Position numbers and translations under genes: made by a program. Under the pieces are notes generated by a model. It worked only from the letters and a program-made list of their open reading frames with translations. It did no database searches and was not told the DNA's origin. DNA of 64,000 bases from Candidatus Pacearchaeota archaeon (lineage in GTDB: Archaea; Nanobdellota; Nanobdellia; Pacearchaeales; JAPDKA01), in contig JAWAFA010000001.1 of NCBI GenBank assembly GCA_038890875.1, forward strand, positions 170,996-234,995, in the 5' to 3' direction. Positions 10,018-40,486 of the stretch are shown one piece after another (position 1 is the stretch's first letter; each line of letters opens with the position of its first letter).

Positions 10018-10509
10018 ATGGAAGAAAACGAAAAAAGAATTGAGGCATTGCTTTTTATTGCTGGTCGATTTATTAGTGAGGCTGATATTGTTAGAATTAC
10101 TGGAGTGGATCCATTAACTCTTCGCGAAATAATCTTAAGAATAAAGGAGAGGTACAGAGATTCGGCCTTGACAATTAATGAAATTGAGGTTGATGGAATT
10201 AAACATTATAAAATGGAGGTTCATGATGAGTTTAAAGATCTCGCCATCAATCTTGCTAGCAAACAAGAGTTTAGCAAGGCTGAACAAGAAACTCTTGCAT
10301 TGATTGCTTATAAACAGCCAATAAAACAAAGTGTTATTGTAAAAATAAGAGGGAATAAGGCTTACGAACATATAAAAAAGTTTCTTGCTTATGGTCTTAT
10401 TAATGCCAAACCTTATGGACACACTCGAATATTAAACCTAACAGAAAAATTTTATGAATATTTTGATATAAAGAATGAAGGAGAAAAATCAGGAGGAATT
10501 GATAAATAA
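10018..10509 (+). CDS. scpB: SMC-Scp complex subunit ScpB
   Basis: IEALLF...ETLALIAYKQPI...IRG. Confidence 0.9.
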   Translation: MEENEKRIEALLFIAGRFISEADIVRITGVDPLTLREIILRIKERYRDSALTINEIEVDGIKHYKMEVHDEFKDLAINLASKQEFSKAEQETLALIAYKQPIKQSVIVKIRGNKAYEHIKKFLAYGLINAKPYGHTRILNLTEKFYEYFDIKNEGEKSGGIDK

Positions 10510-12046
10510 GGAAAAAATAATTTTAGTTCTTTTGTTCTTACTTGCCCTAACATTTTTTCTTTGGCTGCATTCAACACATATTGGATGGGACTTCCAAACT
10601 TATGTTCTAAATGCTAAATATTGGTTTGCTGATGGTGATTATTTCGAATGGGCAAGACCTCCACTTGTTCCTTTGCTTTTAGGCATTTTTTCTTTTTTTG
10701 GTTGGAAAGCTTCTGAGTATGTTTTTATAATTTTTGTTACTTTTCTACATTTTCTTTCATGTATAGTTTTTGCTAAGAGATTTAAAATAAATAAAGTGCT
10801 TTTTTATGCTATTTCTCTCTCACCTTTTGTTCTTATTACTGGCCTTTCTGAAGGCACAGAGCTATTGTCCTTAGCATTATTACAATTGTTTCTTGCCTTT
10901 ATAGAAACAAATTTTGCTTCTTTTTTTCTTGGTCTTGCTTTCCTAGCAAGATATCCTAACTTAATTTTTACTCCTTTGCTTTTATTTACATTGATTAGAG
11001 ACAGAAAAAAATTTTTGCCAAATATTTTTGTCTTTTTGCTTGTAATTTCACCATGGCTTCTCTTCAATTTCCTTACTACTGGAAATGCCTTTACGAGCAT
11101 TATGGATAGTTATGCTCTAAATATTAAGTTTAGAGGTTATATTAATCAACCATTTAACATAAAAGATTTTATTTTAATCACAAACTATCTTTTGCCTTTC
11201 TTTATTGCAGGGATAATTAGAAGAAAAGGAACAAAATTTAAAGCAGAAGATTGGCTAATGATTATGTTTTTTGTCCTAGCTTTATTTAGTTATTCAAGAA
11301 TACCAATAAAATTGACTCGATATTTATTTGTTGCTCTCTTACCAATCTTTTATCTTTCAAGTATAGCGATTGAAGAGGCAAAGAAAAAAAGCGTTATAGT
11401 TTTTGTCTTATTGTCATCAAGTTTATTCTTTTTTGTTTTATCATTGCTTATCTATATCAATCCTTTAAATTATTTCAAATATCTTCTTATTGCTATTTTA
11501 CCGATTTTGATTACTTCTTATTTTTTGAGTATAATCATAAAAAAAATCGGGCATGTTATAGTTTTCTTGTTACTCTTACTTCTATTAAGTTTTTCATTTG
11601 CTATTTTAATATACTTTACAGAAATTAAAAATCCAATAATGCAAGAAAAAAGTTATTTGGACGTTATCAATGAAACAAAAGATTTCTTGAATTGTGGTCT
11701 TTCATCAAATATCCATATTCAATTAAATTACTTTGGAATAAAAAGTGAGGGGGCTCCTCTTAAAAAAGAAATGATCAAAAAAAAGTTAGAAGATGGTTAT
11801 AGAATTTTATTTTTTAAAATTATTCCTGAGCCGGACTATATTAAGAATGAAACTTTTTTGCATCAATTTCCCATAATAAAAGAAGGCAAAAATTATGTTT
11901 TGCTTGGAGATAAAACAAGATGTGCATTAATAAGAAAAATCAATCAAACTTATCTTGAATCAATAAGTGAGCTTTATAGAGTTATTTATAATGAAAATTT
12001 TTCAATTTCTTTTTATGATTTATTTTTTACTAATAAAACTGCATAA
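10475..12046 (+). CDS. GT-C fold membrane glycosyltransferase (PMT/ArnT-like)
   Basis: Many TMs, WDFQTY, RPPLVP, LARYP, RYL motifs. Confidence 0.7.
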   Translation: MKEKNQEELINKEKIILVLLFLLALTFFLWLHSTHIGWDFQTYVLNAKYWFADGDYFEWARPPLVPLLLGIFSFFGWKASEYVFIIFVTFLHFLSCIVFAKRFKINKVLFYAISLSPFVLITGLSEGTELLSLALLQLFLAFIETNFASFFLGLAFLARYPNLIFTPLLLFTLIRDRKKFLPNIFVFLLVISPWLLFNFLTTGNAFTSIMDSYALNIKFRGYINQPFNIKDFILITNYLLPFFIAGIIRRKGTKFKAEDWLMIMFFVLALFSYSRIPIKLTRYLFVALLPIFYLSSIAIEEAKKKSVIVFVLLSSSLFFFVLSLLIYINPLNYFKYLLIAILPILITSYFLSIIIKKIGHVIVFLLLLLLLSFSFAILIYFTEIKNPIMQEKSYLDVINETKDFLNCGLSSNIHIQLNYFGIKSEGAPLKKEMIKKKLEDGYRILFFKIIPEPDYIKNETFLHQFPIIKEGKNYVLLGDKTRCALIRKINQTYLESISELYRVIYNENFSISFYDLFFTNKTA

Positions 12047-22054: not shown

Positions 22055-22837
22055 ATGCAAAAAGTAAGGCTTGTCTCTGAATTTTTAAAAACAATCAGCC
22101 CAACAATGACAAAAGATGAAATTTGCAAAAGAACACTGACTTTTTTATTTGAAAAGCTAAAACTTAGTTGTAGGCTTAATGATTTAAAGCTTGGTGATGA
22201 AAATGGAAAAAAGGAATTAATTAAGTTTGCTGAAAATTATTTAGTTGTTTATTTAAGGAGAAAAACAAATCTTGAGTTTATTAGAATAATGCTTGAGATT
22301 GCTGAGCGCTATATTGCTTATTCTGAGCTCTTTCAATCATCTAAAAAATTTGCGACAACTGATAGATTAACAGGGCTCTTCAATAAGGCATATTTCATGG
22401 GAATTTTAAAAAACATGAAAGCGCGAAAAGAAAATTTTTGGCTTGCTATGCTCGACCTAGATAATTTTAAAAAATTTAATGATAGCTTTGGCCATCAGCA
22501 AGGCGATATACTATTAAAACAAGTTGGGGAAATAATAAGGACTGAACTTAAGCATGGCGAATTTGCTTGCCGTTATGGTGGAGAGGAATTTTGTATAGTA
22601 TTAAAAAGCAATGCTTATGCTCGAACTGAAGCCTTGAGAAAAAGAATTGCAATAATAAATGGAATTGTTACTGCTTCGATTGGATTAACAAAATCTTCAA
22701 ACGAAAGTTTTTATGAACTAATTAAGAGGGCTGACAAGTTAATGTATAAAGCGAAGAAGAGTGGAAAAAATAAAATTATCTATGATAGGTATGAAGGGAG
22801 TATTCTTTCGAAGCTAATTAATCTCTTCAGTAGTTAA
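22055..22837 (+). CDS. GGDEF-domain protein (diguanylate cyclase-like)
   Basis: TDRLTGLFN, DLDNFKKFNDSFGHQQGD, RYGGEEF, TASIG, ADKLMYKAKKSGKN. Confidence 0.92.
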   Translation: MQKVRLVSEFLKTISPTMTKDEICKRTLTFLFEKLKLSCRLNDLKLGDENGKKELIKFAENYLVVYLRRKTNLEFIRIMLEIAERYIAYSELFQSSKKFATTDRLTGLFNKAYFMGILKNMKARKENFWLAMLDLDNFKKFNDSFGHQQGDILLKQVGEIIRTELKHGEFACRYGGEEFCIVLKSNAYARTEALRKRIAIINGIVTASIGLTKSSNESFYELIKRADKLMYKAKKSGKNKIIYDRYEGSILSKLINLFSS

Positions 22838-23375
22838 AATTTAATTGCTCATATCTTTTTTTTCTACTTTCTAAAATTGAATTAATTAAATCGTAAAGAT
22901 TCTCTTTTGTTTTTCTCATCTCTCCTGCAAGTAACTTATACATAACGTCGTGTATTTCATCACTAACCTGTTTAGTGCATGACATTCGAGAAAAAATAGA
23001 AAAAATTTCACTATATTTTATTTTATAAAGTGATGCTTTATTTTCAAACAATGCAGTGGCATTCCCGTCATTATATGCACATTCCTTGGAGCAATAGCCA
23101 AATGCTGTTGAAATAGAAATATCTGTAATTTTTCCATAGTAGCCTAAATAAGTCGCAATGCTCAATAACCTTATTGGCTTATCTTTACAAACGATGCAAT
23201 TAATTTTACTTTCAAAGTTATCGAGAGCAAGGATTATTTCATCCATTCGATCTAACCAGTTCTTAGGTAATTTTGTAGCATTTTTTCTAAGCCATACAAA
23301 CATTGGATAATCATTAACTGCAAGTTGTTCAAGTGACATTCCTTTAGATTTACCTGACTTAAAAACAAAGATCAT
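22827..23375 (-). CDS. Hypothetical protein (possible Zn binding)
   Basis: 182-aa ORF with CIVC and CSKEC; TATA 28 nt upstream. Confidence 0.6.
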   Translation of the reverse strand: MIFVFKSGKSKGMSLEQLAVNDYPMFVWLRKNATKLPKNWLDRMDEIILALDNFESKINCIVCKDKPIRLLSIATYLGYYGKITDISISTAFGYCSKECAYNDGNATALFENKASLYKIKYSEIFSIFSRMSCTKQVSDEIHDVMYKLLAGEMRKTKENLYDLINSILESRKKRYEQLNFNY

Positions 23376-23433: not shown

Positions 23434-24249
23434 TTATAGCTCATCTAGAGGATTCTTAATTTTCTTTAACTCTTCTGTACTCACATGTGTATAGATTTGA
23501 GTTGTATTAAGATTTTCGTGGCCAAGGAGAGTTTGGATTAGCCTTATGTCGGTGCCAGCTTCGAGCAAATGAGTAGCATAACTATGCCTTAGTGTATGAG
23601 GGGTTATTTTTTTATTAAGCTGTGCTTTCTTGGCTGCCTGCTGGACTATTTTTTGTATGTTGCGGGTAGTTAATGGTTTTTCCTTAGAAAAGAGGTAAAT
23701 GTTTTCAGGATGTTCTTTAAGGTACTCCCTCAAATCGCTACAAAGCTTTTCTGATAATACAAACATTCTATCCTTTTTTCCTTTTCCCTTTCTAACAATT
23801 CCTGTTTTTTCTTCAAGGTTTATATCTATTTTTTTCAAATTAACAAGCTCTGATACGCGTAAGCCAGTTGAATAAAGAAATTGAATAATAAGCCTTGATT
23901 TTCTAGTCTCCGCATTTTCGATTAATCTTTTAACCTCTTCTCTTGTTAAAACATTTGGTAGTGTCTTTTCTTTTTTTGGCCTTTCAATGCCTGCTGTAAG
24001 GTCCTTACCTAATATTTTTGTGCTTGCAAATTTTATAGCTGCTAATGCAAGAATTGCTGAGCTTGTTGCCTTGTCAGACATTACAGCCAAAAATCGTTTT
24101 ACATCATCCTGTGTTAATGCTTCAGGATCTTTTTTTGCCATTTCTAAAATTTTTGAATTGAAATACTTATAGTTCCTAATTGTTAGTTCTGACTTCTTTG
24201 TTAGCCTTAGTTCTGTTTCAAGCTTTTCAAGGAATTCTTCTTTTTGCAT
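23434..24249 (-). CDS. xerA: Tyrosine recombinase XerA
   Basis: TGLRVSEL, GKGKKDR, HTLRHSYATHLL, LLGH, TTQIYTH (full R-K-H-R-H-Y set). Confidence 0.9.
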   Translation of the reverse strand: MQKEEFLEKLETELRLTKKSELTIRNYKYFNSKILEMAKKDPEALTQDDVKRFLAVMSDKATSSAILALAAIKFASTKILGKDLTAGIERPKKEKTLPNVLTREEVKRLIENAETRKSRLIIQFLYSTGLRVSELVNLKKIDINLEEKTGIVRKGKGKKDRMFVLSEKLCSDLREYLKEHPENIYLFSKEKPLTTRNIQKIVQQAAKKAQLNKKITPHTLRHSYATHLLEAGTDIRLIQTLLGHENLNTTQIYTHVSTEELKKIKNPLDEL

Positions 24250-24295
24250 TTATGAACTAAAACGAACTTATTTATAAATTTTATTGAAATTCATT

Positions 24296-24323
24296 GGTTC
24301 GCTTAATGCATCTTGTGCGAAAT
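24296..24323. other. dif-like Xer recombination site
   Basis: GGTTCGCTTAA-TGCATC-TTGTGCGAAAT: 11-6-11 imperfect inverted repeat, 21/28 identical to E. coli dif. Confidence 0.75.
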
Positions 24324-24987
24324 TTTCAGGTTTTTTTACAGCTTCTTGCTGGTTGCTGCCTCTTTGCATGCTCGCCGCACATTGCTTGCAAAAACTTTTA
24401 AGCAAGAACTAAAAGTTTTAGCCAATTTTTAGTTTTAGTTTAGAAAGTCTTGAGTCTTGAAGTGCATGCTTTTGGCAAAAAGCGTTTAAAATTTTTGTTA
24501 CTAAATCTTACAAATTTTTACAAATTATTATATTATTATATTTAGGAAGTTTAAGCTGCAAAAAGGAAGAAGGAAAAAGATTGTATTATAGAACATTGTA
24601 AAATTTTAATCAAAAAATTAAAAGTTTAGCGATATGTATCTAATTTGAAATTATATAACTAGCGCTTGATGCTATTTTATTTTTTGTCGAATTTCTGCAT
24701 ATAGATTAATATTGCCCTATTATAGAAATAATCTCTATGAAGGTAACATTTTTCTTACACATGCTTATGCCTCTCCAGCAATTTTTGCTATTCTTGCCGC
24801 TTTCTCTTTTCATTTTTTTGAAAGTACTATTGAATTACATCATCAATTATCATATACTCTTAGCCAAGAATAACCAAGTTCTCTAGCTTTTTCTGCTGCA
24901 GCTTTTGCTGCAGCTTCGAACTCATATATAAGTCCAGTTTTTCTATGCCAATTTAAATATTTTTATTTTTGTTTATAATTGTAAAGA

Positions 24988-25011
24988 TATCTAAACACCT
25001 GTTTAAACAGC
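24988..25011. promoter_or_regulatory. Two TGTTTAAACA-type boxes just upstream of the TATA of 25045..25686
   Basis: TATCTAAACA-CC-TGTTTAAACA-GC, same unit and 12-bp spacing as the intragenic array; TATA at 25016. Confidence 0.6.
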
Positions 25012-25044
25012 AAGATTTATAAACAAAAGCAATCTTTGATTTTT

Positions 25045-25686
25045 ATGCTGTTTGGTTTCTTTAGAAAAAGAAAAATTGAGAATGAAATTGAACGTTTGAA
25101 GAGCATTATGAAAGATTCTTTTTTAAATGTAAAAGATGACTTAAATAAAATTTCACACTGGATAAGTTATTTGAATGAAAAAGATAAAGAACTCGACGTA
25201 AAAATTGAAAAAGTAGAAATGAAAATTGATGAAATTAGTAAAGAATTAACTGAGTTGAAAGAATTTTTAGCTCTTTATTCTGGGGTGTTTAAACAGCTGT
25301 TTAAACACCAAACAGGTGTTGAAGGTGTTCAAACACCTGTTCAAACAGGTGTTCAAACAGCTCTAAATAGAAAAAGTTCAAAAAATATCGTGCTACAAAG
25401 TTTAACTTTGATGGAAAGAGCAATCTTGTGGGTATTGTTAAACACTGATATGAAGCTAAGTTGTGAAGACATTGCAAGAGTGCTTGGAAAAAATGAAAAT
25501 ACTGTAAGGGGGCAGTTAAATAATCTTAAAACAAAATGGCCTAGTTTAGTAGGAGAAATAATTGAAAAAAATGGAAAGAAAAGATATTATGTTGAAGAGA
25601 AAACAAAAGAGCTCCTTCTAAAAGAAATAAAAATGAAGGCTAAGACTAATAAAAAGAAAGAAGAGAGAGAAAAAAGTTCATATTAA
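25045..25686 (+). CDS. Coiled-coil / repeat linker / winged-helix protein A
   Basis: N-terminal coiled coil, QTGVQTPVQTGVQT linker, C-terminal LTLMERAILWVLL...LSCEDIARVLGKNENTVRGQLNNL wHTH. Confidence 0.8.
   Translation: MLFGFFRKRKIENEIERLKSIMKDSFLNVKDDLNKISHWISYLNEKDKELDVKIEKVEMKIDEISKELTELKEFLALYSGVFKQLFKHQTGVEGVQTPVQTGVQTALNRKSSKNIVLQSLTLMERAILWVLLNTDMKLSCEDIARVLGKNENTVRGQLNNLKTKWPSLVGEIIEKNGKKRYYVEEKTKELLLKEIKMKAKTNKKKEEREKSSY
25284..25361. repeat. Intragenic array of TGTTYAAACA boxes (12-bp period), including a perfect 26-bp palindrome
   Basis: GGTGTTTAAACAGCTGTTTAAACACC (25284-25309); TGTTCAAACA at 25326, 25338, 25350. Confidence 0.9.
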
Positions 25687-25701
25687 GTGTAAATTCTTGT
25701 T

Positions 25702-25936
25702 AAAAAATTAAAAAGTGAGGGTTAGTTATTAAATGAAGCAAAAAAGACAAAAGAGAGTTAAAAAGGTATTAAAAAGTGTTAAAAGTGCTTAAAAAATAAC
25801 AAAAAATTAAAAAGTGAGAGTTAGCAAACAATAAATTAGCAAAAATAAGAATTAATAAAGGATAAAGCAAGAGCAAAAGTAAAGCAACTAAAGCTAAAAC
25901 GAACTTTTAAAAATAAAAAACATAGAAGTGAGAGTT
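25702..25936 (+). repeat. Intergenic direct repeats AAGTGAGRGTT
   Basis: 24-bp copies at 25702-25725 and 25801-25824 (23/24 identical); 11-bp core again at 25926-25936. Confidence 0.75.
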
Positions 25937-25993
25937 TATCAAAAGAAATTTTAGTAAAAGCTTTTTTTCGGTTAACAGAAAAGGTTAGGAAGT

Positions 25994-26770
25994 TTATGGA
26001 TTAACAAGTCTTTCAAGTGCTTCCAAGCTTGATATTTTTAATATCTCGTTGGGGATCGAAAGAAAAACTTCCTTGCCATGATAAGTTTCTTTTTGGATTG
26101 GAATGCCTTTAATAATGAGTCTATTAACAAGGTCACGTACTGAACTCGGCGCTAAGCCAGTTTTTTCAGCAAGACTTTTATAGCTTATCTTCAATCCGTT
26201 TTGTTGCAGAGAATAAATAAGTGCAAATATCTCGAATTCTTTTTTTGTTAAAGCTTTAAAACGCTTTATTAAGATCTGTTTATAGTTATTGACTATATGT
26301 TCAATTTTTTCAAGCTCACCTTTGTTTTCTTTTTCTTGTTGGAATAGATTTTGAGTTAAGGTTCTTGGTTGGACTTGTTGAGCTGGTTGTATTTGCATGC
26401 CTTGGAATGTTTTTGATGTTTTTGACTGTAAAAAGTTCGTTTTAATGTGACGTAGGATTGACGTAGATGTGTTGGAGATGTGTTGGAGATGTGTTGGAAC
26501 CCCTTTATTTCCTATGGAATTCTTGAAATAAGTCTTATCTCCTTCATTTTTTTCTTTATTTTCCACAGGAAAAAAGGGTGTGTTGGAAATGTGTTGGAAA
26601 TGTGTTGGAACCATTTTCCATTTTTCTTGTATATTTTTTACATCTTCAAGCTCTTTTTTTATAACTTCTAAATCTTTCCTTAACGCAAGAAGTTCATTGA
26701 AAATGAAATTAATATCTTGTTTTACAATTGCAAAAGTTCTCCTTATTACTTCTTCATCTTTTTTTTCCAT
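25994..26770 (-). CDS. Coiled-coil / repeat linker / winged-helix protein B (paralog of A)
   Basis: TFAIVKQDINFI resembles SFLNVKDDLNKI of protein A; C-terminal LTKKEFEIF...ISYKSLAEKTGLAPSSVRDLVNRL wHTH. Confidence 0.8.
   Translation of the reverse strand: MEKKDEEVIRRTFAIVKQDINFIFNELLALRKDLEVIKKELEDVKNIQEKWKMVPTHFQHISNTPFFPVENKEKNEGDKTYFKNSIGNKGVPTHLQHISNTSTSILRHIKTNFLQSKTSKTFQGMQIQPAQQVQPRTLTQNLFQQEKENKGELEKIEHIVNNYKQILIKRFKALTKKEFEIFALIYSLQQNGLKISYKSLAEKTGLAPSSVRDLVNRLIIKGIPIQKETYHGKEVFLSIPNEILKISSLEALERLVNP
26465..26497 (+). repeat. 3 x 11-bp tandem repeat AGATGTGTTGG (intragenic)
   Basis: Three perfect copies. Confidence 0.95.
26499..26519 (-). promoter_or_regulatory. ORB-like element inside gene B
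   Basis: Minus strand TTCCATAGGAAATAAAGGGGT; shares GAAATAAAGGGGT exactly with the oriC ORB at 37424. Confidence 0.75.
26561..26581 (+). promoter_or_regulatory. Second, inverted ORB-like element inside gene B
   Basis: TTCCACAGGAAAAAAGGGTGT, 17/21 identical to the element at 26499-26519. Confidence 0.65.
26579..26610 (+). repeat. 3 x 11-bp tandem repeat TGTGTTGGAAA (intragenic)
   Basis: Copies at 26579, 26590, 26601. Confidence 0.95.
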
Positions 26771-26800
26771 CTTAGCATAGGGAATTTTATTTTATAAAAT

Positions 26801-27070
26801 TTACTTTTCATTTCTCTCTTGTAGGCTTTTATAGGCAAGATACGCCTTATCAGATAATGTCCACTTTATTTTTCGCAAGAAGTTTGTATTAACCCTTTTT
26901 ACAAGCCCATCCTTCTCAAGCTCGAAAAGGATTTTTTTAATAAATTCTTCATCACGAGCAAGCTCAGAGGCTATATTAGAAGTAAATAAGACGCTTGGCA
27001 TTTTCTCAAACAACAGTGCAAGAATGCTTTCTTTAATTTTCTTAATCTTGGCTTGGCTTATTGCCGGCAT
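26801..27070 (-). CDS. Small winged-helix protein C
   Basis: ILALLFE...LFTSNIASELARDEEFIKKILFELEKDGLV...WTLS wHTH pattern. Confidence 0.75.
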   Translation of the reverse strand: MPAISQAKIKKIKESILALLFEKMPSVLFTSNIASELARDEEFIKKILFELEKDGLVKRVNTNFLRKIKWTLSDKAYLAYKSLQERNEK

Positions 27071-27127: not shown

Positions 27128-27448
27128 TTAATTATATTTTTTATTCCACCATATTTTCATTGTTTCTTTTTCTATTGAATATTCATTTCTAGCCAGGCCT
27201 TTACTATCATAATATTCATGAAGAAGCTCATGCAAGATGGTAATTTCTTGCTCTTCTTTTGGTAAGCCTTTTTCTATGTATATCTTATTATTTTCATAAT
27301 CAATAAACCCATAAATCGATCTTGCTGAATATTTCTTAAATTCCTTTTTTCTCTTCATTGACACTAATTCTATATCAAATTCTTCTAAAATTTTCATTAA
27401 AAAACTATGATCATTCAAGATTTTTTTCAGCTTCTTACTAAATCTCAT
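27128..27448 (-). CDS. HExxH zincin-like protein (ImmA/IrrE-like)
   Basis: GFIDYENNKIYI...ITILHELLH...E. Confidence 0.65.
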   Translation of the reverse strand: MRFSKKLKKILNDHSFLMKILEEFDIELVSMKRKKEFKKYSARSIYGFIDYENNKIYIEKGLPKEEQEITILHELLHEYYDSKGLARNEYSIEKETMKIWWNKKYN

Positions 27449-36575: not shown

Positions 36576-36953
36576 TTATTTTATTCTTGGCATCGGGATA
36601 TGTAAAGGTAAATTGAGCTGATCTTCAATAAGAAGTGCTTTAAGATTGCTTTTTGTTAACACAAAGTTATAGATAATTTTTGCAAGTTCTTTTTCTTTTT
36701 TCCAATTTTTTAAAATTTCGTTTGCACGTTCTTTCTCTTCTAAATAAGTTAGATAGCCAGAGATTGATATTTTTGCTTCTTTTTCATAGTTGACTTCAAA
36801 ATCAAATGGAAAAATCAATATTTTTTTGTCTTCTAACTTTGTATCTGATTCTTCAGGGTCTTTCAAAGTTAGAGTTACAGAAACTTTTTTAGTTTTGATT
36901 ACTTTTTCCCTATTTGCACTAATTTTATTAAAATAGATATTCAAAATTGGCAT
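36576..36953 (-). CDS. Conserved archaeal hypothetical protein
   Basis: 125-aa ORF ending in LNLPLHIPMPRIK. Confidence 0.6.
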   Translation of the reverse strand: MPILNIYFNKISANREKVIKTKKVSVTLTLKDPEESDTKLEDKKILIFPFDFEVNYEKEAKISISGYLTYLEEKERANEILKNWKKEKELAKIIYNFVLTKSNLKALLIEDQLNLPLHIPMPRIK

Positions 36954-37040
36954 TCTTATTTAGATTAGCGTGGTTTTTAAATTTGTCGCATGTATTAAAT
37001 AATGTACTAAATATTAAGTCCTAAATACTAAGTTTTAATG

Positions 37041-37298
37041 TTATAACAAATCTTCTTCATTAACAACAACAAAATCACTTATAGCCATTACAGAGCTCCA
37101 AGAAATAAGAAGTTCTTTGTTTTTAGTCTGTTCAAGATTTAAAGTTAGAGCATAAGATGTTGGAGATGCCAAGACTATTTGAATAATCTCACCTGTTCTT
37201 GTCTCAAAAATTAAATCTTTAATTGTTCCAAGTTTCTTACCTTCTTTTGTAACAACAAGTTTGTTCAAAATTTCTTCAGGTTTTACCTTCCCAACCAT
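37041..37298 (-). CDS. PRC-barrel domain protein (CdpB-like)
   Basis: ILNKLVVTKEGKKLGTIKDLIFETRTGEI...ISWSSVMAISDFVVV. Confidence 0.85.
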   Translation of the reverse strand: MVGKVKPEEILNKLVVTKEGKKLGTIKDLIFETRTGEIIQIVLASPTSYALTLNLEQTKNKELLISWSSVMAISDFVVVNEEDLL

Positions 37299-37423
37299 GA
37301 AATTTTTATTTAAGTTTTATTTATAAAGTTTTCTATGTTTTAATTTAGATTATTTTTTTATTTATTTTTTTATTTTAATTTAATTTTTTTTGATTTAATT
37401 TTATTTTATCACTTAACCATCTT

Positions 37424-37580
37424 ACCCCTTTATTTCAAGTAGAAAGTTTTATAAATAAAAAATTTAACCTGTGGTTTTTCAAAAAATAATTTAAAAGTTT
37501 AATTATACTATTATATATATTTTTTATAACATATTAACGAAAATAAATAATAAAAAACTATCTACTTGAAATCTAAGGGT
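37424..37580. other. Replication origin oriC: inverted ORBs flanking an AT-rich DUE
   Basis: ORB (minus) TTTCTACTTGAAATAAAGGGGT 37424-37445; ORB (plus) TATCTACTTGAAATCTAAGGGT 37559-37580; directly upstream of cdc6. Confidence 0.85.
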
Positions 37581-37728
37581 TTTTCTTATTTCTTTTGGAA
37601 AGAAATACTTCTTCGTATATAATAAAAATAACGACAATAACTAACAATAACCTCCATAAGAAATAGACCTCTCTAACTGTTATATTTAATTTCAACAAAA
37701 TTTAAAAATAAAAGAAAGATTTTTTTTG

Positions 37729-38922
37729 ATGGCATTAAACATAGATAAAATTTTTGATAATGTTATAAGAAAAAGCATTTTTAAAAACAAAGCAGTTTTG
37801 CAATCAGACCACACTCCAGAAATAATTCCTCATCGTGAAAATCAAATAAAACAAGTAGCAAAGATTCTTTCTTGTTCTTTACGACTAGAAAAGCCAAGCA
37901 ATCTTTTTATTTACGGTAAAACTGGGACTGGGAAAACACTTGTTGTAAGGTATGTTATTAATGAAATGTTGAAAAAAACACAAGAACTTAATATTCCTGT
38001 AAAATTAGTTTATACTAACTGTAAATTAAAAAAAATTTCAGATACTGAATACAGAATCCTCGCAGAAATTATTAATTTATTAGGTGGTAAAGTGCCAGCT
38101 ACAGGCCTTCCTACAGATACTATCTATAGAAAATTTGTCGAATTAACAGACGAAAAGCAACAGCTTGTCATAATTGTTCTTGATGAAATTGATGAAGCTG
38201 TAAAAAAAATTGGTGATGCTTTCTTATATAATCTTACTAGATTAAATTCTGAACTAGTAAACTCTCAAATAAGCCTTGTTGGAATAAGTAATGATTTAAC
38301 ATTTATTGACTCACTTGATCCACGAGTTAAATCAAGTTTAAGCGAAGAAGAACTTGTTTTTCCTCCTTATAACGCCTTGCAACTTCAAGATATATTGAAA
38401 GAAAGAGCAAAAAACTCATTTAAAAAGAATGTTGTAAGTCAAGGAGTAATCGAAAAAATTGCAGCTATTGCTGCTAAAGAGCATGGTGATGCAAGACGAG
38501 CTATTGATCTTTTGCGAATAGCTGGTGAACTTGCAGAAAGAGAAGGTAAAGAAAAATTAACTTTAGAATTTGTTAATAAAGCAATTGAAAAAATGGAAAA
38601 AGATAAAATTATTGATCTTGTTGAAACACAGCCAAAACATCACCAACTTATCTTGCTTTCAATAATTGAGTTTAGTGAAAAAACAAAAGAGAAATTTTAT
38701 ACCGGGGATATTTACAATAAGTATGTTGAATTGGCAAGAGAACTTAAACTTGAACCATTAACACAGAGAAGAGTAAGTGATATTGTTGCTGAGCTTGACA
38801 TGCTTGGTCTTATTAATGCCCAAGTAATAAGTAAAGGGAGGTATGGGCGAACAAGAGAAATAAGGATGAATTTACCACAATCATTAATTTCTAAAATTAA
38901 AACAATAATCAACCAAAGCTAA
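37729..38922 (+). CDS. cdc6: Orc1/Cdc6 replication initiator
   Basis: GKTGTGKT, VLDEID, FPPYNALQL, GDARRAIDLL, C-terminal WH GRYGRT. Confidence 0.96.
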   Translation: MALNIDKIFDNVIRKSIFKNKAVLQSDHTPEIIPHRENQIKQVAKILSCSLRLEKPSNLFIYGKTGTGKTLVVRYVINEMLKKTQELNIPVKLVYTNCKLKKISDTEYRILAEIINLLGGKVPATGLPTDTIYRKFVELTDEKQQLVIIVLDEIDEAVKKIGDAFLYNLTRLNSELVNSQISLVGISNDLTFIDSLDPRVKSSLSEEELVFPPYNALQLQDILKERAKNSFKKNVVSQGVIEKIAAIAAKEHGDARRAIDLLRIAGELAEREGKEKLTLEFVNKAIEKMEKDKIIDLVETQPKHHQLILLSIIEFSEKTKEKFYTGDIYNKYVELARELKLEPLTQRRVSDIVAELDMLGLINAQVISKGRYGRTREIRMNLPQSLISKIKTIINQS

Positions 38923-38947: not shown

Positions 38948-40486
38948 ATGAATTTATCAAATATTTTTTTGAAGAAAGGTTTTTTACTACAACCAGACTT
39001 GATTAATTTTATTACTCAAGAAGAAACAGAGTTAATTATTGAGATATTGCAAGCTATTAATGCTCCAAAGATAATTTCTCTTAAATTTTTTTATGATAAT
39101 AAAACAAAAATAGTTTCAATGCTTAACTCTTTTCTAGAATTAAAAAAATTTGACCCTAGTATTATTCTCAACTTAAAAAAAAAATTAGAAGAAGAAAAAG
39201 AGAAAAAAGAGCTAATTAATGAGGTGGAAAGTGAAATAAATAAAAGTGAAGAAGAAAAGAGAATAGAGGAAAAAAAATTTTATTATAATGGTAATTTGTT
39301 TAAACCAAAAAAGATTGAAGTAAAGGATTTTCTCTCTTTTTTTAAAAGTAGGTATGAATGGTTTAAAGATTTTCTAAAAGATAGGAAGGAGTTAGTTAAT
39401 TTGACATCTATTGATAAATTACCAACAAATAACCAAAATGTTTCAATAATAGGGATGGTTATGGAAAAACGAGAAACAAAAAATAAAAATGTTATTCTTG
39501 AACTTGAAGATGGAAAAGGAATAGTTAAAGTACTTATAAATAAAAATAGAACTGTTTATGAAAAAACACATAGCATAGTCGAAGATGAAGTTATCGGTAT
39601 TAAAGGTTTTGGTAATAAAGAGATAATCTTTGCTTCAGAGATAGTCTTTCCAGAAATAGTCAATTTAAATAATAAAAAATGCTTTCTTGATAAAAACGCC
39701 CTTTTTCTCGCCGATATTCATATAGGAAGTGATAAATTTTTGGAAAGTAATTTTAAAAAAGCGATTAAGTGGATAAATGGAGAAGATGGAAATGAAAGGC
39801 AAAGAGACAAAGCGAAAAAAATAAGCCACATTTTTTTTGTTGGCGATATTGTTGATGGTGTTGGCATATACCCTGGTCAAGAAAATGAGCTATTAATAAA
39901 AGATATCATTGAGCAATATAAGTATGCTTATGAACTTTTCGATGAAATTAGGAAAGATATTAAGTTAGTATTTATTCCAGGAAATCACGATGCAGCTAGG
40001 ATAACAGAACCACAAGTTTTTAATATGTTTTCCAAACCACTACAAAAATTAGAAAATGCTGAGTTTTTACCAAACCCAACCTTTTATAATCTTTATGGTT
40101 ATAATGTTTTACTCTACCACGGCGCAAGCTTTGATTATTATGCAAATAAAGTTTATAGCTTAAAAGCAGCTAAAGCTTATGAAAATCCAGAAGAATTATT
40201 AAAATTTTTTCTTCAAAAACGACATTTAGCGCCAACACACGGCTCAACAGTCTATTCTCCAACTGATGAAGATTTTTTTATTATTAAAAAAGTTCCTGAT
40301 GTGTTTGTCACAGCTCATATTCATAAAACAGGAGCAACTCATTATAAAAACATAATTCTTATCTCTACCTCTTGTTGGCAATCACGAACACCTTACCAAG
40401 AAAAATTTGGGCATATCCCTGACCCATGTAAAATACCCCTCTTTAACACCAAAACAAAAGGAGTCCATATTTTAGATTTTAATTAA
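38948..40486 (+). CDS. DNA polymerase D small subunit DP1
   Basis: OB fold then DIHIGS, GDIVDG, PGNHD, YHG, RHLAP, HIH. Confidence 0.93.
   Translation: MNLSNIFLKKGFLLQPDLINFITQEETELIIEILQAINAPKIISLKFFYDNKTKIVSMLNSFLELKKFDPSIILNLKKKLEEEKEKKELINEVESEINKSEEEKRIEEKKFYYNGNLFKPKKIEVKDFLSFFKSRYEWFKDFLKDRKELVNLTSIDKLPTNNQNVSIIGMVMEKRETKNKNVILELEDGKGIVKVLINKNRTVYEKTHSIVEDEVIGIKGFGNKEIIFASEIVFPEIVNLNNKKCFLDKNALFLADIHIGSDKFLESNFKKAIKWINGEDGNERQRDKAKKISHIFFVGDIVDGVGIYPGQENELLIKDIIEQYKYAYELFDEIRKDIKLVFIPGNHDAARITEPQVFNMFSKPLQKLENAEFLPNPTFYNLYGYNVLLYHGASFDYYANKVYSLKAAKAYENPEELLKFFLQKRHLAPTHGSTVYSPTDEDFFIIKKVPDVFVTAHIHKTGATHYKNIILISTSCWQSRTPYQEKFGHIPDPCKIPLFNTKTKGVHILDFN

Follow-up and report, generated by a model that had tools for sequence, protein, structure and literature searches.

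Conserved DNA motifs within winged-helix genes beside the replication origin of a Pacearchaeota archaeon

Introduction

Near the replication origin of a Candidatus Pacearchaeota archaeon, the recombinase gene xerA, a dif-like site and three winged-helix genes, here called A, B and C, stand together with several families of repeated DNA motifs. What is such a block for, and what are its motifs doing inside genes? The original prediction, made from the window (the whole stretch of 64,000 nucleotides that was analyzed), was a centromere-like or origin-like hub coupling replication initiation, dimer resolution and segregation. We confirmed each feature that it had listed, namely xerA, the dif-like site, the three winged-helix genes and the motif families, and found that across the 612-kb genome all motif families of the xerA-dif-A-B-C locus are confined to that locus.

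Results

The locus is part of a conserved origin-proximal neighbourhood

The window contains a canonical oriC (37300-37725), AT-rich DNA with an origin recognition box (ORB) on the minus strand (37423-37445) and an ORB-like element on the plus strand (37559-37585). It is followed on the plus strand by orc1/cdc6 (37726-38922), which is single copy in the genome, and by the gene for the PolD small subunit (38948-40486). On the other side, two minus-strand genes (36576-37298), c3 (125 aa, no family) and c4 (85 aa, a PRC barrel), adjoin oriC, and in most relatives these two lie directly between C and oriC. When neighbourhoods were compared among relatives, the winged-helix genes proved to be syntenic: the order A> <B <C is kept in 28/29 and 38/40 loci of the order, and it is also found in other families of the class. 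C (26801-27070, minus strand) encodes an 89-aa winged-helix protein and lies 30 bp ahead of B, which shares its strand. It has a weak match to Pfam HTH_69 (21.9 bits, under the cut-off of 27) and adjoins B in 29/29 and 39/40 loci.

The B family was matched in 189 of the 201 genomes of the order, and thus the patchy distribution that had been named beforehand as evidence against a core system was not seen. B lies 1,422-14,931 bp from orc1 (median 5,230) in all 89 genomes that carry both on one contig; in each of these orc1 lies to the C side, and in 88 it is divergent. Here and in the motif counts below, the genomes are related and so are not independent samples. In the window the distance is 10,968 bp, in keeping with the predicted 11-13 kb from oriC. 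Ribosomal-protein genes upstream are also conserved, a sign of high general synteny, so the linkage to orc1 may be partly inertia. The distance from B to oriC varies tenfold, so oriC does not include the ORB in B as a fixed structural element. We conclude that the block belongs, as one arm, to an ancient neighbourhood around the origin, xerA - dif - A> <B <C - (c3 - c4) - oriC - orc1>, and that this neighbourhood is core to the order of Nanobdellota-type archaea with small genomes.

An integrated plasmid or virus remnant, made up of an integrase, its att site, repressors and an M78 peptidase, would also place a tyrosine recombinase beside its site and an M78/IrrE-like ORF next to C. The conservation of the B family at the same origin-proximal place speaks against such a remnant, as does a composition similar to that of the flanks. 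Moreover, the M78-like gene is not kept beside C in relatives, and the recombinase scores as a XerA equivalog. The neighbours of the block encode a GGDEF protein, an unknown ORF, the M78-like protein, a NUDIX protein and an Lhr helicase; as the original prediction had stated, no ParA, transposase or virion gene is among them. No relatives were found in the phage, plasmid or viral-contig collections searched. We regard a remnant as scarcely credible.

xerA and a dif-like site beside the module

The gene xerA (23434-24249, minus strand) matches Pfam Phage_integrase at 9e-47 and NCBIfam NF040815 (recomb_XerA_Arch) with 248.9 bits against a cut-off of 220. It encodes the sole tyrosine recombinase of the genome, being the only PF00589 match. 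The dif-like site (24296-24323), 48 bp upstream of the xerA ATG, is an 11-6-11 imperfect inverted repeat with the core GTTCGCTTAA-TGCATC-TTGTGCGAAA, and it is unique in the genome at up to two mismatches to the pattern of the order. Homologous sites in relatives adjoin xerA or stand upstream of A, and dif/xerA are often on the A side of the module. A further element, AAAACGAACTT (24259-24269, plus strand), resembles the outer part of a dif arm and recurs in the A/B spacer (25896-25906) and within B (26433-26443, minus strand). These are its three copies in the genome, all within the locus, and it is weakly conserved in relatives, with 14 exact matches in 41 loci.

With dif and xerA adjoining the module, and with SMC and ScpB encoded in the genome, the block could be a chromosome-domain boundary at which array-bound winged-helix proteins stall Smc-ScpAB by dif, as TrmBL2 does in Thermococcus kodakarensis at a boundary that contains dif. 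In several euryarchaea, dif-proximal boundaries need a winged-helix nucleoid protein rather than XerA, according to the passages on these boundaries in PMC11840125. However, xerA is adjacent to the module in 16/40 loci, and about 16-20/41 have a detectable dif-like site, compared with a near-universal A-B-C triad. In addition, none of A, B and C is a TrmBL2 homolog; the match of C to Pfam TrmB is far below its cut-off. A boundary role is improbable in our estimate.

Gene A carries a repeated box in its linker-coding part and upstream

Gene A (25036/25045-25686, plus strand, with the ATG at 25045 agreeing with the family alignment) matched no Pfam or NCBIfam family at its cut-off. From the alignment and an AlphaFold2 model (pLDDT 86), the protein is predicted to have a coiled coil (residues 3-85), a linker modelled as disordered (86-114), a MarR-like winged helix (115-182) and a basic C-terminal helix. 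Its N-terminus is conserved in the family alignment as a hydrophobic-basic MFGWFxxKK. The top Foldseek matches were MepR/MarR and SmtB, and the modelled winged helix resembles those of MarR and ArsR repressors.

Five 12-bp units of a motif that we call Box A, SWGTTYAAACAS, form an array (25285-25360) that encodes the disordered linker, VFKQLFK...VQTPVQTGVQT. An operator-like copy upstream of A (24992-25010) consists of the palindrome CTGTTTAAACAG (24999-25010) and a half box. It is complementary to the internal boxes at 17 of 18 positions and abuts a TATA-like element, TTTATAAA (25017-25024), which was assigned by eye. Among relatives, Box A occurs inside A in 37/39 loci and at most 400 bp upstream of A in 31/39, and its density per kb is 5.3 inside A and 4.2 upstream, compared with 0.20 elsewhere. 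The synonymous sites of its codons are frozen (Val GTY in 103/104, Gln CAA in 101/104 and Thr ACA in 102/104), and Gly is GGT in 25/31 cases against a background of 21%.

A GTGAG repeat fills the 3' part of A and the A/B spacer, always on the same strand (97 to 0). The A-rich spacer holds three plus-strand copies of AAGTGAGRGTT, starting at 25713, 25812 and 25926 (span 25713-25936), which are the only exact copies in the genome. The GTGAG motif is on the sense strand of A in 40/40 A-bearing loci listed, or 39 in the count without L064. Because it is strictly one-stranded, it suits a role at the RNA level as well as oriented DNA sites. The spacer itself ranges from 48 to 727 bp across loci, and its length is not conserved.

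Gene B shares the ORB motif with the orc1-adjacent region

Gene B (25994-26770, minus strand) matches Pfam HTH_24 with 25.2 bits against a cut-off of 21.9. Its product is predicted to have helices at residues 3-51 and 141-172, a disordered segment between them (52-140) and a winged helix at 176-238; in the AlphaFold2 model (pLDDT 77.5) the linker is also disordered. The original prediction that A and B share architecture and similarity was borne out by profile comparison of the two families (hhalign 98.5%, E 2.7e-15, 167 columns), while pairwise BLASTP was not significant (E 0.14). Judged by these profiles, A and B are remote paralogs, each with a predicted coiled coil, disordered linker and winged helix.

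The linker-coding part of B contains two perfect 11-bp arrays. The first, TGTGTTGGAGA x3 (26468-26500), is read in all three frames as THLQHISNT, and the second, TGTGTTGGAAA x3 (26579-26611), encodes VPTHFQHISNT. Contigs from four other runs cover parts of the arrays without an indel, at low depth. ORB-a, ATTCCATAGGAAATAAAGGGGTT (26498-26520), is on the minus strand, which is the coding strand of B; at 34 bits it is the best match genome-wide, and it encodes the near-invariant S-x-G-N-x-G-V motif of the B family. Its inverted partner ORB-b (26560-26582, plus strand) scores 20.1 bits and is separated from it by 39 bp of AT-rich DNA.

All 41 B genes examined have a canonical ORB in the linker-coding part, a GAAAY-NNN-GGGG element with a TTCCA dyad before it. 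The codons are fixed as GGA AAT nnn GGG GTT CCA ACA, although GGG makes up 18% of background Gly codons. A second ORB copy was found by regex in 6/41 loci, and two PWM matches of at least 13 bits within B in 13/41; in 3 loci the second copy sits in another reading frame. A PWM built from the B sites alone gave 4 matches genome-wide, two in B and one at oriC. On 640 kb of loci it gave 99 matches, of which 54 fell within B, another 40 beyond c4 toward orc1, and 5 at other places, compared with 0-3 in shuffled sequence. The reverse PWM, trained on oriC sites that were themselves chosen with the B PWM, matched B in 41/41 loci. The ORB core also agrees with the Pyrococcus ORBs printed in PMC1904270, and a PWM scan of the genome's own PolD small-subunit gene gave no ORB match. 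The ORBs in B and those adjacent to orc1 represent one motif.

The motifs are conserved as DNA

The repeats might have no function as DNA and be by-products of low-complexity linkers, slippage or AT-rich codon bias, or they might be contingency (phase-variation) repeats. The length of the B linker varies widely, many B genes contain tetranucleotide-like (ACAG)n runs, and slippage of 11-bp units would shift the reading frame. However, the motifs are also present in non-coding DNA (Box A upstream of A, GTGAG in the spacer, ORBs at oriC), they recur across different reading frames, and rare codons are fixed; these three points argue strongly against the absence of a DNA-level function. The indel-free coverage by the other runs points weakly the same way. 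We consider such an absence highly improbable. In relatives, the motif families are kept at synonymous positions of codons and across two or more reading frames, and we conclude that the linker-coding DNA of A and B, the 3' part of A and the A/B spacer are packed with elements conserved as DNA and not as protein.

With ORBs inside B, the block could be part of the origin proper or a second origin, with initiation or MCM loading at the inverted pair in B and with A, B and C as accessory initiators whose genes hold their origin, comparable to lambda O/ori. An ORB(-)...ORB(+) pair with an AT-rich gap, in the orientation seen at oriC, is present in the window and in 6/41 loci overall, and consensus sequences show that the B-internal ORBs fit the dyad better than the orc1-adjacent ones. 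Nevertheless, B holds one ORB or a direct pair in most loci, the AT-rich gap is only 39 bp, and the length of the A/B spacer is not conserved. GC skew gave no signal for or against a second origin. We judge it quite unlikely that replication starts here.

Discussion

Taken together, these results favour the origin-like part of the original prediction: the ORBs in B match the orc1-adjacent motif, orc1 is linked in every same-contig genome, and dif/xerA are often on the A side. For the centromere-like part, A, B and C would coat the arrays and hold or move the newly replicated origin region, as bacterial RacA/ram or ParB/parS do, with dif/XerA in the same domain. Dense motif arrays found only at this locus, a few kb from oriC, are consistent with this idea, and a coiled coil joined to a DNA-binding domain suits bridging. 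The conserved hydrophobic-basic N-terminus of A and the PRC-barrel gene in the conserved neighbourhood can be added, and the only ParA-type match of the genome is a weak CbiA match (34.8 bits) to a frame of 448 aa at a distance of 75 kb. In contrast, the block lacks a motor or partner protein, the arrays are short (3-7 boxes), and a MarR-like winged helix with a palindromic operator at its own promoter is typical of autoregulators. A centromere-like or tethering hub is, in our view, unlikely.

We instead propose, tentatively and with slightly less than even confidence, an origin-flanking accessory locus whose genes double as putative binding sites, for Orc1/Cdc6 on B and for A on its own boxes. 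The single Orc1/Cdc6 would bind the ORB or ORBs inside B, which would make B an accessory initiator site flanking oriC. Bound Orc1/Cdc6 may act as a roadblock and so control transcription through B, on a putative operon that in most relatives would begin inside oriC. The B ORBs may also take up initiator just after origin firing, as proposed for datA and the Haloarcula oriC2 ORB cluster; one or two ORBs per B gene are few for titration. A, dimerised by its coiled coil, would bind Box A at its promoter and within its gene and so autoregulate in the manner of lac O1-O2 looping, although the binder of Box A could instead be B or C. Unconstrained linker codons would offer a place to house such sites, as ori-lambda is housed in the gene O linker. 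The net effect would be to tie the levels of three origin-associated DNA-binding proteins to initiator occupancy and, if the reading is true, to couple the regulators A, B and C to initiation.

Parts of this arrangement resemble known systems. The haloarchaeal oapABC/arvABC genes (small GTPase, DUF2073 and DUF2072), tied to vesicle formation in the passages on them in PMC10927574, are likewise a three-gene cluster conserved beside the main origin; the proteins are unrelated, and those passages describe no embedded DNA motifs. Archaeal XerA/dif systems, as outlined in the dif sections of PMC2958812 and PMC11840125, share a single XerA-type recombinase and a unique 28-bp 11-6-11 site with a TAA-N6-TT(A/G) centre. 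The same sections place a dif-like site also upstream of the xerA operon in Haloferax and Halobacterium, whereas Thermococcales dif is in the termination region, away from xerA. The site described here neighbours xerA and lies within roughly 3-15 kb of orc1.

The original prediction also stated that no description of this combination was known to it, but an intragenic ORB cluster beside the origin has a precedent in Thermococcales. In the portion of Matsunaga et al. 2007 (PMC1904270) on dp1, a second cluster of ORB and mini-ORB repeats inside that gene flanks oriC, is conserved among related genomes and, in Pyrococcus, is bound by Cdc6/Orc1 in vivo, with its function given as unknown. The likeness lies in ORBs within a protein-coding gene flanking oriC and conserved among relatives. 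The host gene differs, being a polymerase subunit downstream of cdc6 there and a winged-helix gene on the other side of oriC here, where the ORB also falls in the segment for a disordered linker and sets the "conserved" peptide motif of the family. For Haloarcula hispanica, the relevant part of PMC4010727 describes an ORB cluster downstream of oriC2-cdc6E and proposes that it restrains initiation in a datA-like titration model. The extra initiator-binding sites near but outside the origin core are alike, those here being predicted; the Haloarcula cluster comprises many ORBs, with no description there as coding, whereas here 1-2 ORBs lie in an ORF with further motif families around them.

MarR/ArsR autoregulators resemble A in its winged-helix fold and in the palindromic box abutting the TATA-like element of its own gene. 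Unlike MarR, A and B have no MarR dimerisation helices; in their place stand an extended N-terminal coiled coil and a disordered linker, and operator-like copies also lie inside the A ORF.

The phage lambda origin lies inside gene O, in the interdomain linker, and Bacillus subtilis has parS inside spo0J; in both, the protein has been shown experimentally to bind its own intragenic sites. Lambda ori inside gene O and the intragenic ORB cluster of Thermococcales are arrangements of the same kinds that were already known. The common feature with lambda ori and spo0J parS is that cis sites of a replication or segregation system lie in the coding DNA of that system's DNA-binding protein. The difference is that the intragenic ORB here would be the site of another protein, Orc1/Cdc6, and that the binding of A to Box A is putative.

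Gene content and placement of the locus

The source genome comprises 612 kb in 5 contigs (90.7% complete, about 32% G+C), and the window also contains an rRNA operon and housekeeping genes. ORF and Pfam/NCBIfam scans upheld the four genes of the original prediction, xerA (23434-24249, minus strand) and the winged-helix genes A (25045-25686, plus strand), B (25994-26770, minus strand) and C (26801-27070, minus strand), and its repeat positions were exact when we re-examined the sequence. The xerA product matched the NCBIfam XerA equivalog NF040815 at 248.9 bits (cut-off 220) and PF00589 at 159 bits, contains HTLRH, GH and the tyrosine of IYTHV in its translation, and is the sole tyrosine recombinase of the genome. 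The product of B matched Pfam HTH_24 at 25.2 bits (cut-off 21.9), and the HTH hits of A and C were sub-threshold only, with every Pfam HTH model below its gathering cut-off. As predicted, no ParA, transposase or virion gene is adjacent: the neighbors are GGDEF, unknown, M78-like, NUDIX and Lhr helicase ORFs. Searches of the window and the locus with Rfam found no family within the block, and a tRNA search found none there.

The orc1/cdc6 gene (37726-38922), present in single copy in the genome, precedes the gene for the PolD small subunit. The DNA preceding orc1 is AT-rich and carries inverted elements that resemble origin recognition boxes (ORBs). Together, these features place the block 10-14 kb from oriC, in agreement with the 11-13 kb proposed before. 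GC skew of contig C1 (minimum at 135 kb, maximum at 330 kb, orc1 at 209 kb) was uninformative.

Several nearby genes deserve mention in their own right. A GGDEF (diguanylate cyclase) domain protein is encoded at 22055-22837 on the plus strand (PF00990, 5.5e-34) of this 0.6-Mb DPANN-type archaeon, and is 54% identical to its counterpart in a genome of the same genus (L033); c-di-GMP signaling genes are unusual among archaea. Between it and xerA lies a 182-aa Cys-containing ORF without a family (22827-23375, minus strand), whose conservation does not extend beyond the genus. A small M78/IrrE-like ORF with sub-threshold Pfam hits (27128-27448, minus strand) is directly upstream of C and is not kept beside C in relatives. 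Farther away, at 10018-12046 on the plus strand, a ScpB gene (PF04079, 3e-32) overlaps the next ORF, whose 523-aa product has no Pfam family and could be a divergent partner such as a kleisin.

A winged-helix gene triad is linked to orc1 across the order

A profile of B matched 189 of the 201 sampled genomes of the order Pacearchaeales, and 73 of the 76 of high quality. Among 29 loci of ±1.5 kb, A was convergent to B in 28, and C lay upstream of B in the same orientation in every one; in 40 loci of 16 kb, drawn partly from the same genomes, A and C were each present in 39, and xerA was upstream of A and divergent from it in 16. Clustering of all ORFs gave a consensus order of ribosomal-protein genes, c6 (xerA), A pointing right, B, C, c3 and the PRC-barrel gene c4 pointing left, oriC, and then orc1 and the PolD small-subunit gene pointing right. 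In some families, that of the window included, C and c3 are separated by an insert that contains the Lhr helicase gene among others.

A search for orc1 matched 192 of the 201 genomes. Among the matches listed, B and orc1 were found together in 111 genomes, on one contig in 89 and on split contigs in 22. In all 89 same-contig genomes among these listed matches, the two genes lay 1,422-14,931 bp apart (median 5,230) with orc1 on the C side, and in 88 it was divergent; these are relatives rather than independent samples, in a region whose synteny is high in general. The original prediction hinged on synteny in relatives, and the arrangement of A, convergent B and upstream C is kept across the order and recurs in other families of the class. 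The number of genomes with B and the constant origin-near placement in the listed same-contig genomes contradict an integrated mobile element, and a composition that is not foreign speaks against a remnant of one. Searching phage, plasmid and viral-contig collections turned up no relatives. We conclude that A, B and C are a core origin-linked triad of winged-helix genes to which XerA and its dif-like site are often attached.

In the window, c3 (125 aa, no family) and c4 (an 85-aa PRC-barrel protein) occupy 36576-37298 on the minus strand, and in most relatives they lie between the triad and oriC. A promoter within oriC probably drives both of them together with C and B, divergently from orc1. 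Members of the PRC-barrel family have been linked to archaeal cell division.

The signature motif of B coincides with an origin recognition box

The near-invariant peptide of the B family, S-x-G-N-x-G-V-P-T, is always encoded as GGA AAT nnn GGG GTT CCA ACA, and TTCCA-NN-GGAAAT-NNN-GGGGTT occurs on the coding strand of 41 of 41 B genes. The element, a TTCC...GAA dyad followed by a G-run, matches the ORBs beside the lineage's own orc1, and the 'TTCC' and 'GAA' core motifs are also features of the Pyrococcus ORB sequences given in PMC1904270. The GAAAT is retained despite a Gly-to-Arg change in two loci (L061 and L064), and three loci have a second ORB copy in another reading frame.

With a weight matrix trained on the B sites alone, only four sites in the whole genome reached at least 12 bits: two in B (26498-26520, minus strand, 34 bits, and its inverted partner at 26560-26582, 20 bits), a third at oriC (37423-37445) and a fourth outside both. 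Across the 41 loci (640 kb), 99 hits reached at least 13 bits, against 0-3 in block-shuffled sequence with the same matrix. Of the 99, 54 lay in B, 40 in the c4-orc1 interval, where most formed inverted pairs, and 5 outside both. The matrix built from orc1-side sites, which had been preselected with the B-trained matrix, gave a hit in B at each of the 41 loci. Among 14 outgroup loci that have B, the ORB was within the gene in 13. Judged by sequence match to the lineage's own standard, the B element is an ORB. These sites could make the locus a true origin component; the ORB of B sits in an ORF, 1.4-15 kb from orc1, and not in an intergenic origin flanking an unwinding element.

B also contains two perfect 3 x 11 bp arrays. 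In this genus the arrays prolong the ORB flank, each unit being a degenerate half-ORB when read from the other strand (GGAAAT-GTG-TTGG). Their place is taken in other lineages by repeats of (ACAG)n-like type or of 12 bp.

Two further motif families are embedded in and around A

The 12-bp palindromic element of gene A, Box A, forms an array of five boxes at 25285-25360 (SWGTTYAAACAS), and a further palindromic copy (24999-25010) lies beside a TATA-like element 21-28 nt before the ATG of A. Using the core TGTTYRAACA with at most one mismatch, we found Box A inside the gene (about +230 to +330) in 37 of 39 loci and in the 400 bp preceding A in 31 of the 39, at densities of 5.3 per kb inside A, 4.2 upstream and 0.20 in the rest of the loci. 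The upstream copy in the window is clearly non-coding; the upstream regions of relatives may in part overlap small ORFs. A variant, GACCAAACA, occurs in one locus (L062), and at least two boxes are retained in 11 of 16 A genes outside the order.

Codon choice in the VQT-x units that the boxes encode (n=104) is nearly fixed. Valine is GTT or GTC in 103 of 104 (GTA plus GTG make up 34-48% of the background), glutamine is CAA in 101 of 104 (background 61-65%), and threonine is ACA in 102 of 104 (background 51%). Glycine is GGT in 25 of 31 (background 21%) and never GGA (background 47%). The FKQ-FK stretch of the A linker is encoded by further boxes.

The second family, AAGTGAGRGTT (the GTGAG repeat), has three copies in the A/B spacer. 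Allowing one mismatch, we counted 97 hits on the sense strand of A between the A start and the B stop (36 kb in all), none on the opposite strand there, and 23 in the other 593 kb on both strands. Each of the 39 loci counted has 1-4 copies, a count that omits L064, where a contig end cuts A; in a separate listing, all 40 A-bearing loci have copies. Within the ORF, 28 copies read K-V-R-V-K and 16, in a different frame, read K-S-E-G-L; 50 copies are in the spacer. In this genus both in-ORF copies are lost, and two or three lie in the spacer instead. From its strand bias, the motif may act either as DNA or in the mRNA of A. Its A-run may provide oligo-T terminators for B; the in-ORF copies offer T4 only.

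The non-coding Box A copy, the use of multiple frames and the fixed codons contradict an origin of the motifs as purely protein-level or slippage products. Taken together, sequence conservation shows no fewer than three nucleic-acid elements, an ORB among them, in the linker-coding DNA, the 3' part of A and the spacer. The locus offers a clear example, across the order, of coding DNA in dual use: the 'invariant' S-x-G-N-x-G-V-P-T is an ORB in translation, accompanied by two further motif families read in several frames.

Contig pieces from four sequencing runs were identical where they covered the locus, with no indels listed and parts uncovered; they do not support phase variation, and they test it only weakly. 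Among sequencing runs, none of RNA was listed with the locus, and six with matching DNA contigs were, from two studies, one of which may be the source.

A dif-like site adjoins xerA near the origin

A dif-like site with two imperfect inverted arms of about 11 bp and a 6-bp spacer (24296-24323) lies 48 bp from the ATG of xerA. In the DNA separating xerA from A, a search for inverted repeats of the form 11-N-11 returned one recurring sequence class. The dif pattern of the order matched the genome once at up to two mismatches, at 24297-24322, making the site single copy; by eye, its arms have four mismatches. At up to three mismatches the pattern occurred in 16 of 41 loci, always on the A-upstream side, either adjoining xerA or, in loci with xerA at another place, 0.8-1.5 kb upstream of A; the site also adjoins xerA in 5 outgroup loci. 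It shares the TAA-N6-TT(A/G) center, the most conserved feature of archaeal dif according to PMC11840125. In Haloferax and Halobacterium, the same paper reports a site of this kind upstream of the operon that contains xerA. In Thermococcales, by contrast, dif is in the terminus region and away from xerA (PMC2958812), whereas the site described here is origin-proximal. Some 13.4 kb separate it from orc1, and the genome measures at least 612 kb, which is not a termination-region placement. A rival reading would make the locus a dif-associated SMC boundary of the TrmBL2 type (PMC11840125). A dif site beside the origin bears on dimer resolution in archaea that lack FtsK.

The only three genome copies of AAAACGAACTT (24259-24269, 25896-25906 and 26433-26443) are all in the locus. 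The copy between the xerA ATG and dif resembles the outer dif arm, and by this resemblance the copies may be XerA half-sites; the sequence is weakly conserved in relatives.

A and B belong to one family of winged-helix proteins

The likeness between A and B in the original prediction was not significant in pairwise BLASTP, but family profiles aligned by hhalign at 98.5% (E 2.7e-15, 167 columns), from the N-terminal FxxVKxDI helix through the winged helix. By this profile match, A and B are paralogs within one uncharacterized family. A single-sequence search found no further paralogs of either in their own genome. AlphaFold2 with family alignments predicted for A a helix (3-85), a disordered segment (86-114), a winged helix (115-182) and a C-terminal helix (pLDDT 86), and for B a helix (3-51), a disordered segment (52-140), a helix (141-172) and a winged helix (176-238; pLDDT 77.5). 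All intragenic repeats fall in the segments encoding the disordered parts. In Foldseek the DNA-binding part of A resembles MepR/MarR and SmtB/ArsR repressors. Matches to A in the ESM Atlas were confined to Nanobdellota clusters, either unnamed or labeled 'HTH type 11', the nearest named relative of the B protein is annotated Candidatus Pacearchaeota archaeon, and the B profile retrieved only a GCN4 coiled-coil chimera from PDB sequences. A prediction of the A and B complex, run without controls, scored 0.00 and speaks neither for nor against a complex.

The N-terminus of A, MFGWFxxKK (family alignment residues 1-10), precedes the coiled coil and is conserved, with hydrophobic-aromatic residues followed by basic ones; such a tip may bind membrane or a partner. 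A homologs in genomes of other families were matched across in-frame TGA/TAG (G445:C1:609380-609994, G350:C1:338811-339425 and G381:C1:240907-241497), which could mean that the gene is decaying or that these lineages read stop codons differently.

The locus could alternatively be a centromere or tether. Each motif family was restricted to this locus in a genome-wide scan; Pfam/NCBIfam searches gave no hit to the ParB, SegB or RacA families for A, B or C, the block has no ParA-type gene, and the sole match in the genome-wide search is weak, to CbiA, at a distance of 75 kb.

A possible link between initiator and protein supply

From the motif placement, Orc1/Cdc6 would bind inside B, and A would bind Box A at its own promoter and within its own ORF. 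Together, these two interactions would couple initiator occupancy to the supply of DNA-binding proteins associated with the origin, buffer the initiator, or both. Precedents are on record for the ORBs: Cdc6 binds intragenic ORBs in dp1 of Thermococcales (PMC1904270), and ORB clusters flanking origins have been proposed to titrate Cdc6 (PMC4010727).

A broader and rather unlikely reading is a chromosome-maintenance center, a single domain of about 5-15 kb in which Orc1 would bind the ORBs at oriC and in B, A, B and C would coat their own genes through Box A, GTGAG and the 11-bp arrays, the hydrophobic N-terminus of A and the neighboring PRC-barrel protein would tether the domain to the envelope or division machinery, and XerA would resolve dimers at dif there. 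If so, organisms without ParABS, SegAB and FtsK would physically couple initiation and dimer resolution with the anchoring or segregation of the origin, and coding sequences would serve as the centromere. Three uncharacterized, near-universal, origin-linked DNA-binding proteins of a major uncultured archaeal lineage are candidates for replication or cell-cycle control, and the defined DNA-protein pairings are testable in vitro with recombinant proteins, free of culture.

Comparison with known systems

In keeping with the claim that this combination has no description, a full-text literature search covering main texts found none of the module. Haloarchaeal oapABC was rejected as a homolog of the triad, its proteins being unrelated (PMC10927574), and Sulfolobus UBP/ucm has a different fold. 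The A-B-C triad, an ORB dictating a family signature motif, the two further embedded motif families and the origin-side dif appear to be undescribed. They are assembled with components of known kinds, namely the ORB, XerA/dif and a MarR-like winged helix, and intragenic ORBs are already on record.
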